Shown in pieces: positions 3,859-10,452 of a stretch of DNA of 46,320 nucleotides (positions are counted from its first letter, which is position 1; each line of letters starts with the position of its first letter). Below the pieces are notes generated by a model. That model was not told the origin of the DNA, did not search any database, and saw only the letters and a program-made list of their open reading frames with translations. The stretch lies in IMG/VR virus record IMGVR_UViG_2645727562_000022, positions 1-46,320 of that record. One strand, written 5' to 3'. A program made the translations under genes and the position numbers. Source of the stretch: a virus (lineage: Duplodnaviria > Heunggongvirae > Uroviricota > Caudoviricetes).

Positions 3859-4361
3859 TGGGCGTTACCTCCATCATTCGCGAACTCACCATGAATCTCT
3901 GCCCGAGCTTTTTTGATCGCCTCAGCATCATCCTGCTTATCAGAAAAGGAGCCAACGTTGATGTCCTTTCCTTCATACATAATTGATGCCTTCCATTTGT
4001 TAGATTTCCGGCACCATGAAACGCCCTTTATCCCGGAAGTATTGGTGGACTGTATCTTCCTGTTAAGCGCGTTTTGCCTTAAAGAGACAATACGAAGATT
4101 GGAGATCCTGTTGTCTTTCCTGTCACCATTAATGTGGTCCATTATTCCTTCTGGAAACTCTCCTTATACGTATAGCCATGCGAGCCTATGAGAAAGATAA
4201 ACAACGCCGTCAACGCAAAACCGCAGGTAGCCATGTGAGTTAGTTGTTCCGGCGATATCGCCTTTAATGGCTCTGCTGGATGTAGACTTTATTCTTGTGA
4301 AGACGCCTGTATAGCTGTTGTAGTGAAATAACTCCTTAAGCCGAGATTGAGTTAGCGTCAT
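3855..4361 (-). pseudogene. HNH homing endonuclease (AP2-domain type) interrupted by an in-frame TAA
   Basis: ORFs 4164-4385 and 3855-4142 are in the same frame, separated by TAA at 4164-4166. Read-through gives [31 protein letters not shown], colinear with the intact paralog at 8610-9095 where the stop position is a Tyr. Confidence 0.65.
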
Positions 4362-4544: not shown

Positions 4545-4751
4545 TCAGTTTCGAATGCGGCGTAAACTAATGCCTTCGCGCTTGCACATCTGGCGAAGGG
4601 ATTCGTATGAACGGTTGATTTGTCTTGCGATGAGTTTTGAGTGAATGGTTCCGGCAATTTCCCTGACTGATTCGATATCAGATTCACCCCATGGCCGTCC
4701 GTGGCTAAGTTGGTTGGAGCGTAGTTCGTAGGTGTGTTTACGCTTGTACAT
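4545..4751 (-). CDS. Hypothetical protein (68 aa)
   Basis: ATG at 4751 with AGGTG RBS 4 nt upstream, tightly packed after the Gp157-like gene. Confidence 0.4.
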   Translation of the reverse strand: MYKRKHTYELRSNQLSHGRPWGESDIESVREIAGTIHSKLIARQINRSYESLRQMCKREGISLRRIRN

Positions 4752-4758
4752 TGCGCAC

Positions 4759-5241
4759 CTACTTGATTAGCAGCGTTGGCTTACCGAGCTTGAGTGATGC
4801 GCCAGGAATAGCTTTACCGGCCTTGAGTTGATGCTTGATGGCTAGCTTGTCGGCCTTAACTGTTGTTATGTATTCAACGTACTCAGGAGGCAGGGAACCT
4901 TCATCTGTGATTTCAACTGACTCCACAGGAGCGCGAACTGTGACCTGATGGATGCCAGCGCGAATCTTTTTCTTACCAATCATCTCAAGCGAATTAGCGA
5001 TGTAGGTCATGATGTTATCGACCTTGTTGTTGATTACGGCAGCGCGTTCATTGAGTGCCTTAGCCTCTTCCTTGAGGCGCTCGGCATATCCGGTTTCGTT
5101 CTTACAGATAGCAAGCAACTGCTCTATCTTATCTGTAAGCTCGCCTTCCATGCCTTCCAGCGTGTCGGCTATCTCGTCTGCTTCAAAGTCGGCATCCATC
5201 AGCCGGGCGTAACCGTTGGCAATCTCATACAGTTTGCTCAC
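4759..5241 (-). CDS. Siphovirus Gp157-family protein (RecT-associated)
   Basis: 160-aa acidic protein immediately downstream of recT, the usual pairing; sequence resembles the Gp157 family. Confidence 0.55.
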   Translation of the reverse strand: MSKLYEIANGYARLMDADFEADEIADTLEGMEGELTDKIEQLLAICKNETGYAERLKEEAKALNERAAVINNKVDNIMTYIANSLEMIGKKKIRAGIHQVTVRAPVESVEITDEGSLPPEYVEYITTVKADKLAIKHQLKAGKAIPGASLKLGKPTLLIK

Positions 5242-6136
5242 TGGTCACCTCCAGCTTTGCCTTGCACTCTGCATAGATGGCCTGAACGTTCTGCTGCAGC
5301 TTCATGCCTGCAGTGCGTTTGTAGGCGTCAGCAAACACACGTTTAAGGTCATCCATGGTTTCAGCATGAGCCATATCATCGCAAAGCGCCTGAATGTGCT
5401 CGATGACTTCCTGCTGGCGTTTGCGCTCATCCTCGCATATATCTTCCTCTGACTTATGCGGCATGACCGGCTCAGTCCAGACACCTTCTTCTTCGTTCAG
5501 AACGTGAATTGCGCTATCAAGGCGAGAGGCTTTAGGCCAATACTTGCTTGCTCGCTTGACCACTGTCTTTCGCGCCATCTCATTCCAGTGATTAACCCAC
5601 GGGCCCTTATCGCTGAATGCGGCCTTGCTCGTCTTCCTGACAGCCTCAATTTCTGCAAGGCTCATCTCTTCCGTAAGGTAATCACCTGCAGGAGTCTTAA
5701 CCGTGCAGTAAACGCCAACGATGTCACCACGGTCACCAAAAGCGTTGTATTTGTGTGTAGGGGCCTTATCTAGGCCGTTTGACTCATAGGTGTCGTTAGC
5801 ATGAACAAGCTTTGCCTGACCCCATGAGATAACCCCTGACTCCATGGCGATATGCAGCAATCCCATGTAACTGATATCAAGGCACACCATACCGTCGCGA
5901 GGAACCAGATAAGCCAGCTTGCTTGCCGGGTTTAACGTGATGCCAATGGCCGCTACGTTGATGATTGCGTTCTGTGCGCTGGTAGGATTTGATAGGGCGG
6001 TTTTAGCGAGGAAGTCATTCTTCTGGAAGTACTGAATTGCGAACTGACTTTCCTTAGCCCATGTGACTGTCTGCTCTGTCAGTGCTCCACAGAATAGCGG
6101 CTCCTGCTGTTTAACGAACTCAACGATATTGCTCAT
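5225..6136 (-). CDS. recT: RecT-family single-strand annealing recombinase
   Basis: GPWVNHWNEMARKTVVKRASKYWP matches the conserved RecT block (GPWVTHWEEMAKKTAIRRLFKYLP in Rac RecT). Confidence 0.9.
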   Translation of the reverse strand: MSNIVEFVKQQEPLFCGALTEQTVTWAKESQFAIQYFQKNDFLAKTALSNPTSAQNAIINVAAIGITLNPASKLAYLVPRDGMVCLDISYMGLLHIAMESGVISWGQAKLVHANDTYESNGLDKAPTHKYNAFGDRGDIVGVYCTVKTPAGDYLTEEMSLAEIEAVRKTSKAAFSDKGPWVNHWNEMARKTVVKRASKYWPKASRLDSAIHVLNEEEGVWTEPVMPHKSEEDICEDERKRQQEVIEHIQALCDDMAHAETMDDLKRVFADAYKRTAGMKLQQNVQAIYAECKAKLEVTSEQTV

Positions 6137-6441: not shown

Positions 6442-6550
6442 TTTGCGTCTCCTGTAGAATCTGCTCTTTCATTTCTTCTTCAAGAAGGTCACTCATGAGA
6501 CGAATAAATGCAGGGTCGTCCCATTTTCGCTTTGGAATGTTTTCAATCAC
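6407..6550 (-). CDS. Small hypothetical ORF (47 aa from GTG, or 29 aa from ATG 6496)
   Basis: GTG overlaps the stop of the cIII-like ORF (GTGA); acidic C-terminus. Weak call. Confidence 0.25.
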   Translation of the reverse strand: MIENIPKRKWDDPAFIRLMSDLLEEEMKEQILQETQNAPDDDRQNRD

Positions 6551-6717
6551 GGCTGCACCTTCTGATTCAGAAACTCAACCAGACGCTCGAGCAAGCTCTT
6601 AACGCGAGGCTGCTTGAAGTCTGCGCCGGTAATGATGTTCTGGCGTGAATGCTGGACGGATAAGATAGGGTCGAAAGGGCGAACCGATGCCGCCCCTGCA
6701 ATAGCGAACTGTTGCAT
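6547..6717 (-). CDS. CIII-like small protein (putative FtsH inhibitor)
   Basis: 56 aa with AAGGAG RBS 6 nt upstream. MQQFAIAGAA... and ...SLLERLVEFLNQ resemble lambda CIII (MQYAIAGW..., ESLLERITRKL...ILNQ); position matches cIII. Confidence 0.45.
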   Translation of the reverse strand: MQQFAIAGAASVRPFDPILSVQHSRQNIITGADFKQPRVKSLLERLVEFLNQKVQP

Positions 6718-6785: not shown

Positions 6786-6812
6786 AAAAAAATGCCCGAC
6801 ATAAGCCGGGCA
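6786..6812 (-). terminator. Rho-independent terminator (minus strand)
   Basis: Stem TGCCCG / CGGGCA with 8-nt loop, followed on the minus strand by TTTTTTT. Confidence 0.6.
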
Positions 6813-6929
6813 AAGATGACAACAAGGGGGTATTAATCAGAACATCATCTATCGTCTCCTTTAGATGATGCGAGCGAGATTGCTCACTATCGACTCTCTG
6901 TGAAAGTCGATAAGGTGCTTATTCGCTGC

Positions 6930-7256
6930 TTACATAATCATTCCTGCGACTACTACCATTTCGATGCCGCTATCTTTCAAGATGATTGCGGTTGAGTTAT
7001 CAACCTTGCTTTCACGCCATTTGCCAGCATCTGACCTTTCAGCTCCGCAATAAGAAAGCCAGTCATCGTTGCAGTCCTTAGGGTCACTGATTCTGACAAG
7101 CACACGAGATAGCGCCTTTTCGATATCTTCATCATCGACAGCGTTTGTGTAATTGCCGTGAGACAATTTCAGATCAGCGACCTCATCTTCGTTAGCGTCA
7201 AAAACGTAGATATCAGTCGATTCCGGTACGTTTTCATAAACCATTAAAACTTTCAT
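6930..7256 (-). CDS. Hypothetical acidic protein (108 aa)
   Basis: ATG at 7256 preceded by AGAGGTG RBS; the ORF-track GTG at 7262 lies inside that RBS. Confidence 0.5.
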   Translation of the reverse strand: MKVLMVYENVPESTDIYVFDANEDEVADLKLSHGNYTNAVDDEDIEKALSRVLVRISDPKDCNDDWLSYCGAERSDAGKWRESKVDNSTAIILKDSGIEMVVVAGMIM

Positions 7257-7276
7257 ATTCACCTCTGTGGCTTGCT

Positions 7277-7303
7277 GCCAAAAGAAGGCCGACTAGGCGG
7301 CCT
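7277..7303 (-). terminator. Rho-independent terminator in the leftward early operon (tL-like)
   Basis: Stem AGGCCG / CGGCCT with loop ACTAGG, followed on the minus strand by TTCTTTTGG; 12 bp from the IS left end. Confidence 0.5.
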
Positions 7304-7377
7304 AGTCAACTTTCTGAATCGCCACGGGTTTAACAGACACCTCAGAGTCATTTAAGATGACTTAAAGAGAGGTGCCC

Positions 7378-7656
7378 ATGAGCGGTAAGCGTTATCCTGA
7401 AGAGTTTAAAATTGAAGCAGTCAAACAGGTTGTTGATCGTGGTCATTCTGTTTCCAGTGTTGCAACACGTCTCGATATCGCCACTCACAGTCTTTACGCC
7501 TGGATAAAGAAGTACGGCCCGGATTCTTCCACTCATAATGAACAGTCAGATGCTCAGGCCGAGATCCGCCGTCTTCAGAAAGAGTTGAAGCGGGTTACGG
7601 ACGAACGGGACATATTAAAAAAAGCCGCGGCGTACTTCGCAAAGCTGTCCGACTGA
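7378..7656 (+). CDS. IS3-family transposase OrfA (HTH)
   Basis: MSGKRYPEEFKIEAVKQV...ILKKAAAYFAK is typical of IS3-family OrfA; ATG at 7378 with GAGAGG RBS (ORF track begins at GTG 7372). Confidence 0.85.
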   Translation: MSGKRYPEEFKIEAVKQVVDRGHSVSSVATRLDIATHSLYAWIKKYGPDSSTHNEQSDAQAEIRRLQKELKRVTDERDILKKAAAYFAKLSD

Positions 7657-8525
7657 GGTACGCCTTTATCCGCGACAACAGCCGTTGCTGGCCTGTTCGT
7701 TTGCTCTGTCGGGTTCTGGATGTCCATCCGAGTGGATTTTATTTCTGGCTTCAGCAGCCACATTCGCAGCGTCACCAGACAGATCAGATGCTGACCGGGC
7801 AAATCAAACAGTTCTGGCTTGAGTCTGGCTGCGTCTATGGTTATCGCAAGATCCATCTCGATCTGCGTGATACCGGACAGCAGTGCGGAGTGAACCGGGT
7901 CTGGCGGCTGATGAAGCGTGCCGGAATAAAAGCTCAGGTTGGGTACCGTAGCCCACGAGCACGTAAAGGCGAAGCCAGTATCGTGACACCCAACAGGCTC
8001 CAGCGGCAGTTCAATCCGGACTCACCGGATGAGCGTTGGGTGACGGACATAACCTACATCCGAACCCACGAAGGCTGGCTGTATCTGGCCGTGGTGGTTG
8101 ACCTGTTCTCCCGAAAAGTTATCGGCTGGTCAATGCAACCCCGCATGACAAAAGAGATTGTCCTGAACGCCTTACTTATGGCGGTGTGGAGGCGTAATCC
8201 TCAAAAGCAGGTACTGGTTCACTCTGATCAGGGTAGTCAGTACACGAGCCATGAGTGGCAGTCGTTCCTGAAATCACACGGTCTGGAAGGCAGCATGAGT
8301 CGTCGCGGTAACTGCCACGACAACGCGGTTGCGGAAAGCTTTTTCCAGCTACTGAAACGCGAACGGATTAAGAAAAGGATCTACGGAACGAGAGACGAAG
8401 CCAGAAGCGATATTTTTGATTATATCGAAATGTTTTATAACAGTAAGCGTCGGCATGGTTCGAGCGAGCAGATGCCACCGGCTGAATATGAAAACCTATA
8501 TTATCAACGGCTCAGAAGTGTCTAG
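7617..8525 (+). CDS. IS3-family transposase OrfB (DDE), expressed as OrfAB by -1 frameshift
   Basis: Slippery A-run at 7617-7623; the -1 frame continues KKSRGVLRKA... into the 274-aa ORF, which has a DDE catalytic triad; the standalone ORF begins at TTG. Confidence 0.8.
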   Translation, partial: KKSRGVLRKAVRLRYAFIRDNSRCWPVRLLCRVLDVHPSGFYFWLQQPHSQRHQTDQMLTGQIKQFWLESGCVYGYRKIHLDLRDTGQQCGVNRVWRLMKRAGIKAQVGYRSPRARKGEASIVTPNRLQRQFNPDSPDERWVTDITYIRTHEGWLYLAVVVDLFSRKVIGWSMQPRMTKEIVLNALLMAVWRRNPQKQVLVHSDQGSQYTSHEWQSFLKSHGLEGSMSRRGNCHDNAVAESFFQLLKRERIKKRIYGTRDEARSDIFDYIEMFYNSKRRHGSSEQMPPAEYENLYYQRLRSV

Positions 8526-8609
8526 ATTATCCGTGGCGATTCATTCCATGCCTTACACTCGTTAAGATGCGAACACATGGAATGTGATATCTCTGTTGCA
8601 ATGCAAATC

Positions 8610-9095
8610 TCATCCTGCATTGGAGAAATCTCCGTGAAGATTTTTAGCGGCTATGCAATATGCTTTATGGGCATCCTCTGGGTTATCAAACACACCAAGA
8701 TGATGCTTTATTCCATTTGCCCGTATTTGACCAACCCACTTACGCTGACGTTTTGAGTAGTAAACTCCTTTGTACCCGCAGCCATTTTTTTGAGCTGACC
8801 TGTTTCTGCTGTTTTCTGCCAGCGTCGCAAGCCTGAGGTTGCAAATTCTGTTGTCTGTGCGGTTACCATTTATGTGATCAATAACGTCAGGTGGCCAGAA
8901 TCCATAAGTAATTAGCCAAGCTAGTCTGTGTGCGAAATATTTTACTCCGTTTATCTCTATAGCAACGTGTCTTGTCATATCCCTAGTCCCTGCACGCTCT
9001 AGCGTTGATCTCTTTCCAAGGCCGGGCTTCCATTTGAACAACCCAGTATCAGGGTTATATTCGAGAAGTGAATTTACCTCTTCTAAATTAACCAT
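8610..9095 (-). CDS. HNH homing endonuclease with AP2 domain (intact)
   Basis: YFAHRLAWL...IDHINGNRTDNRICNLR is the HNH_3 motif, followed by an AP2-like GYKGVYYSKRQRKWVGQI; start overlaps the N stop (TAATG). Confidence 0.8.
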   Translation of the reverse strand: MVNLEEVNSLLEYNPDTGLFKWKPGLGKRSTLERAGTRDMTRHVAIEINGVKYFAHRLAWLITYGFWPPDVIDHINGNRTDNRICNLRLATLAENSRNRSAQKNGCGYKGVYYSKRQRKWVGQIRANGIKHHLGVFDNPEDAHKAYCIAAKNLHGDFSNAG

Positions 9096-9343
9096 TATGC
9101 CCTCGCAGTAATGTCCTTAGATTTACGATATCCAGCAGAGTAAAGTGCAACATCAGGAAGGCATGTCGAGCCTGTATTTTCACATTTAGCCCTTTGGCTA
9201 TTTGCAAACGAAACAGCACGTGTTACGCGCTCACTACAGCCTTCCGACAGCCGTGAAAATGCACGGTCAATCTTTTTACAGTAGGCTTTCATCTCTTTGT
9301 GCTGACGAGCACGTTCGAGTTTACGAATCTCTCTGGCTTTCAT
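9095..9343 (-). CDS. N: N-like transcription antiterminator
   Basis: Arg-rich N-terminus (MKAREIRKLERARQHK); GGAGG RBS; immediately downstream of boxA/boxB (nutL) and OL. C-terminal ...LPDVALYSAGYRKSKDITARA resembles P22 gp24 as recalled from memory. Confidence 0.6.
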   Translation of the reverse strand: MKAREIRKLERARQHKEMKAYCKKIDRAFSRLSEGCSERVTRAVSFANSQRAKCENTGSTCLPDVALYSAGYRKSKDITARA

Positions 9344-9535
9344 TGGATACCTCCAGTGGTTGCTTTGGTGATTGGATGGCCGGGCTGAGAATCCGGCTTA
9401 CTGGTTGGAGCGCCCACACCACCAGTGACACTGTCTTGAGGCGCCGGTTGGTTACGGCTTGCCATGAGCGCTGTTTATACATCGGTCGAGCATCAGCCTG
9501 CTCAATCATCCAATCCCAAAGCAACTTCCTTTGGC

Positions 9536-9572
9536 GGGGACGAATCATCCCCATGTCATCTTGTTAAAGAGC
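9536..9572 (-). promoter_or_regulatory. nutL site (boxA and boxB hairpin)
   Basis: Minus strand reads GCTCTTTAA (boxA-like), an 11-nt spacer, then GGGGA-UGAUUCG-UCCCC. The same stem/loop style recurs at nutR. Confidence 0.55.
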
Positions 9573-9620
9573 TGCCAATCAGTTCCGTTTGGCTACCAGC
9601 GTCCTGCTGATGGACTAAAT

Positions 9621-9703
9621 ATACAAAACGTATCCTAATAGTGCAATACAAAATGTATACGCAAGCGGCGAAAAAGATATAACGATATGTATACAAAAGG
9701 AAT
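9621..9703. promoter_or_regulatory. OL operator cluster (pL region)
   Basis: Palindromic 13-mers ATACAAAACGTAT (9621-9633) and ATACAAAATGTAT (9646-9658), plus a degenerate third copy near 9680-9703; same consensus as OR. Confidence 0.6.
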
Positions 9704-9720
9704 TTATTTTTGAAAGGAAT

Positions 9721-9744
9721 ACAAAAAAGGCCGCTTAAGCGACC
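9721..9744 (-). terminator. Rho-independent terminator downstream of cI
   Basis: Minus strand GGTCGC-TTAA-GCGGCC stem-loop followed by TTTTTTGT, directly after the cI stop. Confidence 0.5.
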
Positions 9745-9750
9745 TTGATG

Positions 9751-10452
9751 TTAGGGGAGGTTGGTGATTTTGGCGTCTACAACAACGCCGATAATGCGGC
9801 AATTCCCATTCACTTCAATCATGGGATATTGCGGGTTGAGAGGCTTCAAGAAGCGTCTTCCTGCGTCTATGACAAGCTTCTTGAAGGTGGCTTCATTCTC
9901 GCTATCCAATTTAGCTACAACCAACTTTCCATTGATGGGCTCTACTTCTGGATCAACGAGAATAACCATGCCTTCCGGGATACTCAGGCCGACAGGTGAT
10001 GTCATTGAATCACCCTTAACATCCAGCCAGAACGAGTTCTCTGAGCAATCTATATTTGTTTCATACCAGCGGTCTATAGCCCGCTTATGATAAGGTTCTA
10101 CGGCTTCCATCCATTCACCTGCACTTACCCAGCTGATTACGGGATAGCTTCCCTTCGGCTCATTCTTTCCATGGAAACTTACGTTTGTAGCGGAAGATTT
10201 ATCCCTAATAGTGCCGTCAGCATTGACCTCGAAACTCCGAAGCCCAAGGTAAGTCATTATCTTGGCTATATCCTCAAGGCTTGGCTCGCGTCTAGCGTTA
10301 AGCCAATGGCTAACTGCCCCCTTTGTAATGCCGAGGTGTTCTGCCAGCGTCTCCTGAGATACGCCGCGCCCCTTCATGAGGTCTTTGGCTAGTTCATACC
10401 ATTTCATATTCATGTCCTGATCATACGAACTGTATTCCTTTTTGCGAGACAC
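9751..10452 (-). CDS. cI: CI-type prophage repressor (HTH plus S24 autopeptidase domain)
   Basis: N-terminal HTH (VSQETLAEHLGITKGAVSHWLN) and C-terminal LexA-like domain with GDSM serine and a downstream lysine; GTG start abutting the operator, consistent with a leaderless transcript. Confidence 0.85.
   Translation of the reverse strand: MSRKKEYSSYDQDMNMKWYELAKDLMKGRGVSQETLAEHLGITKGAVSHWLNARREPSLEDIAKIMTYLGLRSFEVNADGTIRDKSSATNVSFHGKNEPKGSYPVISWVSAGEWMEAVEPYHKRAIDRWYETNIDCSENSFWLDVKGDSMTSPVGLSIPEGMVILVDPEVEPINGKLVVAKLDSENEATFKKLVIDAGRRFLKPLNPQYPMIEVNGNCRIIGVVVDAKITNLP

Follow-up and report, generated by a model that had tools for sequence, protein, structure and literature searches.

Evidence for recent transposition of an ISEhe3-like element into the leftward early operon of a lambdoid Escherichia coli prophage

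Analysis of a 46,320-nucleotide prophage sequence (the whole stretch analysed, hereafter the window) from E. coli GCA_001265735.1, contig JHRZ01000022.1, revealed a 1229-bp insertion sequence (IS) in its leftward early operon, flanked on either side by TTC. We are highly confident that this arrangement reflects a recent transposition, in which an ISEhe3-like element entered an intergenic gap in a lambdoid E. coli prophage and duplicated the TTC; the site is probably tolerated and near-neutral. The case is built on the structure of the element, on copies of it in other replicons, on a close relative of the locus that has no insertion and on the organization of the surrounding operon.

Structure of the insertion sequence

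The element occupies positions 7315-8543, with its transposase genes on the plus strand. It starts with TGAATCGCCACGG and ends with CCGTGGCGATTCA, giving the TG...CA termini TGAATCGCC...GGCGATTCA, and its 1229 bp fall within the 1.2-1.55 kb range of the IS3 family. The left inverted repeat (IRL; 7315-7340, plus strand, TGAATCGCCACGGGTTTAACAGACAC) pairs with the right inverted repeat (IRR; 8518-8543, minus strand) at 19 of 25 positions (20 of 26 when the repeat is extended by one), and the outermost 13 positions match perfectly. Six independent copies from other replicons, comprising plasmids and a phage, share the IRL terminus and the end position of IRR; because they start and end at exactly these bases, the boundaries are fixed independently. 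Beyond these boundaries lie the two copies of TTC, at 7312-7314 and 8544-8546; chance alone would produce a 3-bp flank match in 1 of 64 cases. A promoter-like TTAACA-17-TAAGAT (7330-7358, plus strand), recognized by its match to the consensus, lies partly within IRL and 5' of orfA, and by analogy with IS911 and IS3 it is a putative transposase promoter.

Within the element, orfA (7378-7656, plus strand) encodes 92 amino acids, is annotated at that length in the source record and contains an HTH_Tnp_1 domain (PF01527, E = 8.8e-20, 71 bits). The orfB frame (7623-8525, plus strand), at -1 relative to orfA, contains rve (PF00665, E = 2.8e-33, 115 bits), HTH_21 (PF13276) and rve_2 (PF13333). Where the two frames meet there is an A7G run (7617-7624, plus strand), which the orfA frame divides as A AAA AAA G, and a -1 slip at this run yields an uninterrupted OrfAB of 383 amino acids without any stop. 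OrfAB carries the catalytic residues D224, D284 and E320 together with K327, a D-60-D-36-E spacing with K at +7; 35 residues separate the second D from the E, which corresponds to DD(35)E-K. This description of the element, including its TG...CA ends, 19 of 25 matching repeat positions, orfA/orfB organization and A7G run, agrees throughout with an earlier note on this DNA, and the sequence and the Pfam matches bear it out.

Folding predicts an 11-bp hairpin (7629-7664, plus strand) that begins 5 nt past the slippery run, contains the orfA stop and is a putative frameshift stimulator. Its stem is invariant in seven of seven copies that are otherwise 88-99.9% identical, and shows no covariation, a pattern compatible with constraint. 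The A7G run itself is kept in six of the seven copies compared; it is intact in the window but lost in the copy of Shigella phage SfIV, where A7 is replaced by GAATCTA-CA and the downstream hairpin is unchanged (L085 1796-1886). The SfIV copy is probably unable to make OrfAB by frameshifting. Rfam searches of the window at gathering thresholds, and of 7200-9700 at E <= 1, found no known frameshift element or nut family. By comparison with IS911, IS3, IS2 and IS150, ribosomes slipping by -1 at A AAA AAA G, with help from the hairpin, would produce OrfAB, and as a member of the IS3 family the element would be expected to move by a copy-out/paste-in route through a circular intermediate that has a junction promoter.

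Relatives of the element and the empty site

The size, the TG...CA repeats, the orfA/orfB pair at -1 that overlaps at a slippery heptamer, the two domains (HTH and DD(35)E-K) and the 3-bp duplication, for which the IS3, IS51 and IS150 groups show 3-4 bp, are all features of the IS3 family, and on sequence grounds the element is assigned to that family as an ISEhe3-like member of the IS51 group. ISEhe3 (ISfinder accession AF327445) is classified in the IS51 group of the IS3 family, with TG ends and 3-4 bp direct repeats (PMC10425158). As found on pPATH of Pantoea agglomerans (Erwinia herbicola), it is likewise 1229 bp long, with TG...CA ends, orfA plus orfB and a 3-bp duplication. IS911, IS3 and IS150 share the two-ORF layout, an A-rich -1 heptamer followed by structure, DD(35)E, a 3-bp duplication and a promoter partly within IRL, but they belong to other subgroups and have the slippery motif A AAA AAG, in place of which the present element has A AAA AAA G.

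The closest copy lies on Klebsiella variicola plasmid pQL2 (NZ_CP106965.1, WP_095429518.1), which matches the window element at 1228 of 1229 nt (99.9%) with the same termini; the sole difference, G versus A, falls at window position 7480, within orfA. This copy resides in another genus on a conjugative IncF plasmid and has its own perfect 3-bp duplication, GTT/GTT, the only one among the six other copies. Full-length copies on plasmids of Enterobacter sp. R4-368 and P. agglomerans are 98.9% and 97.0% identical, respectively, and the SfIV copy, annotated as ISEhe3 orfA/orfB, is 88.0% identical at the DNA level. ISfinder counts elements as the same IS when they are at least 95% identical in nucleotide sequence to the reference; by its 88% identity to the SfIV copy the window element would be a distinct IS, and its 97% identity to the P. 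agglomerans copy suggests a possible isoform of ISEhe3, both values being measured against proxy copies rather than AF327445 itself. In a set of 5,426 complete E. coli genomes, no full-length copy exceeded 96.6% identity, and the one that reached this value was a pseudogene; the common E. coli relative of the element was 89.8% identical.

ISEhe3-like copies of the same group are also carried by phages, namely SfIV and Klebsiella phages Kp4865-2 and RCIP0114, at sites that differ from the one described here: the SfIV copy separates the gtr genes from the tail-fibre assembly genes, whereas the window copy is located in the early-left operon, with N-HNH on one side and a terminator resembling tL1 on the other. 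SfIV was isolated as a viable phage carrying its own IS (PMC3851460). Phage genomes are considered to carry IS insertions uncommonly, with selection acting against them (PMC3429520).

The insertion point was examined by joining 6900-7314 to 8547-9400, a hypothetical empty site that was then compared with related loci. Relatives of the HNH protein in IMG/VR are at most 51% identical and unfit for an empty-site comparison, and members of the same 90% protein cluster were used instead. L081 and L082 are a pair of Logan contigs whose 161-aa HNH protein falls in the cluster of the window HNH protein; their 886-bp alignment, at 98.9% identity, covers N, HNH and the terminator and runs unbroken through the rebuilt junction. 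The junction in these contigs reads ...GTGTAAGGCATG GAA AGTTGACTAGGCCGC..., with one GAA (TTC on the plus strand), compared with GAA-IS-GAA in the window. Because the single GAA/TTC sits exactly at the junction, we conclude that the 3-bp target duplication is real and that the insertion was precise. The proposal that the TTC repeats represent a true target duplication is thereby upheld by the comparison that the earlier note had suggested, of the locus with the uninterrupted site of a related prophage.

The element was absent from all 18 IMG/VR prophage loci that contain the downstream 108-aa gene and from all ten loci with N-HNH relatives. At this site it was found only in the source contig, JHRZ01000022.1, and in one Logan contig of 12,916 bp (SRR19671035) with identical junctions. 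The latter contig (L002 / L087) is identical to the window over the shared stretch and ends 242 bp past the 108-aa gene, at approximately window position 6688. Within the source genome, the exact OrfA sequence is confined to a single contig, and assembly placed the IS inside a contig of 373 kb, which suggests that the element is single-copy in that E. coli genome. Other searches gave no further example of the site, empty or filled: a 24-nt empty-site pattern had no match in a scan of genome contigs, exact searches of viral contigs returned zero matches each for the empty site and the filled right junction, and no complete E. coli genome contained an uninterrupted N-HNH-terminator site. The scan of genome contigs also gave no confirmed relative of the 108-aa protein.

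These observations leave very little room for the element being an old, conserved component of the phage lineage or an artefact of assembly. The occurrence of the IS at the same place in two assemblies could be read as a sign of long residence, but the empty site of a 98.9%-identical relative holds a single TTC and refutes this reading, the IS is missing from every other related locus examined, and its open reading frames, inverted repeats and duplication are intact in a copy 99.9% identical to one on a plasmid. The identical junctions, moreover, come from independent assemblies, which speaks against an artefact. Since the element is undamaged, differs by 1 nt from the pQL2 copy and is absent from relatives, we regard the insertion as recent and strain-specific. 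The earlier note had likewise proposed a real and probably recent transposition, and the absence of the element from about 28 related loci and the near-identity to pQL2 agree with it; the inverted repeats and the duplication withstand alignment, and across the 28 loci the element is no conserved part of the lineage. The insertion provides a clean strain marker for the prophage.

The leftward early operon and the effect of the insertion

The operon entered by the element runs leftward, on the minus strand, from a repressor gene with S24 and HTH domains (9751-10452, minus strand). The first gene leftward of the repressor gene encodes an N-type antiterminator (9095-9343, minus strand; PF25694 N_peptide, E = 4.7e-16), and between pL and N there is a nutL-like site (9536-9572, minus strand). 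This site consists of a boxA-like GCTCTTTAACAA (9572-9561), which we take to match the rrn-type boxA consensus, and a boxB-like hairpin predicted by folding (9552-9536), the loop of which is unlike that of lambda or P22 boxB. Directly downstream of N is an HNH-AP2 endonuclease gene with HNH_3 and AP2 domains (8610-9095, minus strand), and the IS is placed 63 bp past its stop codon. A tL1-like intrinsic terminator (7286-7310, minus strand), identified by scanning and folding, has a 10-bp stem and a CUUCUUUU tail; the insertion point is 4 bp upstream of it in the pL direction. The transposase is antisense to pL. No open reading frame is interrupted by the IS, and the terminator is left intact. 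The placement given in the earlier note, between the HNH gene and a tL-like terminator, is thus confirmed by Pfam and by the terminator scan and fold, and the gene calls agree that the transposase strand is opposite to that of N, HNH, RecT, xis and int.

The terminator is kept 5' of the 108-aa gene in 18 of 18 relatives. Its stem shows paired changes among them (AGGCCG...CGGCCT versus AAGGCTGCC...GGTGGCCTT; L005-L022 ~3950-3990), natural covariation that supports a functional terminator. The 108-aa gene (6930-7256, minus strand), which has no Pfam family, is the first gene past the terminator and the nearest downstream of the IS; an exact search with a 110-aa version that starts at GTG gave no match, and the gene in fact begins with the ATG at 7256, which yields 108 aa. 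Farther leftward, all on the minus strand, are a 56-aa ORF (6547-6717), a 102-aa ORF placed between the 56-aa ORF and RecT in gene order, RecT (5225-6136), Gp157 (4759-5241), an excisionase-like gene (1340-1624) and the integrase gene (27-1307). The 56-aa ORF had been called cIII-like; its region has approximately 83% DNA similarity to a region of phage mEpX1 annotated as cIII, but it had no match to Pfam Lambda_CIII at E <= 0.01, so that the name stands on DNA similarity and not on Pfam.

What lies between N and the tL1-like terminator is variable. In the window HNH-AP2 occupies this slot, and the ATG of the gene overlaps the stop codon of N; strains HL15 (L090 2771-3193) and SF10 of E. coli share N and the terminator with the window but have an unrelated 140-aa gene in place of HNH, and the position looks like a slot for homing endonucleases or morons. 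On the far side of the terminator, the homology of L081 ends a few bases past the ATGAAAG start (7250-7256; L081 ~4610-4620) and an unrelated 84-aa gene comes next, and in IMG/VR relatives of the 108-aa gene homology starts at the terminator hairpin. Because the homologies break there on both sides, the segment comprising the terminator and the ribosome-binding site acts as a joint of mosaic recombination.

Assuming from their sequences that N and nut function at this operon, unmodified polymerase from pL would halt at the terminator past the IS, with or without the insertion, and only N-modified polymerase, which overrides both intrinsic and Rho-dependent terminators, would reach RecT, xis and int. 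N-modified polymerase reportedly overcomes the polarity of IS insertions, a result of Adhya, Gottesman and de Crombrugghe in 1974, whose paper is among the references of PMC2147009. Because the downstream genes already depend on N-antiterminated transcription, we infer little polarity: the insertion would add about 1.2 kb of antisense transcript with little change in the expression of RecT, xis and int, and its main cost would be that about 1.2 kb more DNA has to be transcribed and packaged. N complexes are imperfectly processive, and two weak terminator-like hairpins are found on the minus strand within the IS (8140-8124 and 7642-7625), although these antisense hairpins are unlikely to matter much.

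The earlier note had raised the prospect of attenuated leftward expression, which would make the IS polar: 1.2 kb of untranslated antisense RNA with terminator-like hairpins would lower expression of the recombination genes, xis and int, leaving a poorly excisable phage on the way to becoming a defective prophage. We consider this improbable, though by no means negligible. The two minus-strand hairpins are what such an effect would call for, untranslated RNA is in general a substrate for Rho, and the presence of the IS-bearing prophage in two assemblies only is what would be expected of a phage that does not spread. Set against this, the N gene and the nutL-like site are intact upstream of the IS, no ORF is disrupted, and the conserved terminator directly downstream implies that the genes past it need antiterminated transcription in every relative; suppression of IS polarity is also a classical property of N. 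The analysis offered no support for attenuation, and the upstream N gene and nutL-like site make it unlikely. Far less probable still is that a promoter directed out of the IS drives the 108-aa gene, the cIII-like ORF and RecT constitutively in the lysogen, a possibility that had also been suggested. Some IS3-family ends do carry outward -35 elements, as established for IS911, IS2 and IS3, but here it is IRL rather than IRR that points towards the downstream genes, a scan of the whole of 6800-9800 detected no sigma-70-like site on the minus strand, and the tL1-like terminator between the IS and the downstream genes would stop unmodified polymerase leaving IRL. On these grounds the outward-promoter idea was rejected, and insertion at a near-neutral site remains the reading that we prefer.

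Host prophage, route of the element and significance

Beyond int, the chromosomal flank is 100% identical to E. coli genomes. The integrase abuts rspB-rspA-ynfA-ynfB-speG-ynfC-ynfD-ynfE (L089 7300-13281; host DNA to the left of window position 27), a region that in E. coli K-12 lies near the Qin cryptic prophage. The late genes (21400-41600), among them tail sheath and baseplate J, share only approximately 76% identity with the deposited phages closest to them, Pantoea phage PA-1 and several phages derived from Klebsiella prophages. Judged by its genes, the prophage is a mosaic with a lambdoid early region and a myovirus late region that is poorly represented among sequenced phages. Its early genes recur in Enterobacter. 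At the right end of the prophage, a gene for a tailspike-like protein with a pectate-lyase fold (42476-44731, plus strand) converges with an Acyl_transf_3 acyltransferase gene (44760-45800, minus strand), which is likely to be a lysogenic-conversion gene that modifies O antigen.

The IS variant is otherwise found on plasmids of Klebsiella, Enterobacter and Pantoea, and the prophage that holds it here is apparently complete. Because the variant is rare in E. coli and seemingly single-copy, and because the prophage has its nearest relatives in Enterobacter, Klebsiella and Pantoea, a still-functional phage may have brought the IS into E. coli as a passenger, which N antitermination would keep harmless between N and tL1; we regard this route as possible but doubtful. 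If true, it would be a natural example of phage-mediated transfer of an IS between genera, a process that Leclercq, Gilbert and Cordaux have argued to be rare (PMC3429520).

The event described here is real but ordinary. A known IS, matching an annotated copy at 99.9% identity, has settled in a new and apparently harmless place. IS insertions in phages, although considered uncommon, are well known, and the kind of event is already known. The consequences beyond annotation are small, the IS being best marked as a mobile element with its duplication rather than as phage cargo. If the prophage is inducible, it would offer a natural test of the ability of N antitermination to protect a phage operon against IS polarity, as well as a convenient case for temperate phages ferrying IS elements between genera of Enterobacterales. 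Neither N shielding nor IS ferrying, if true, would surprise specialists.
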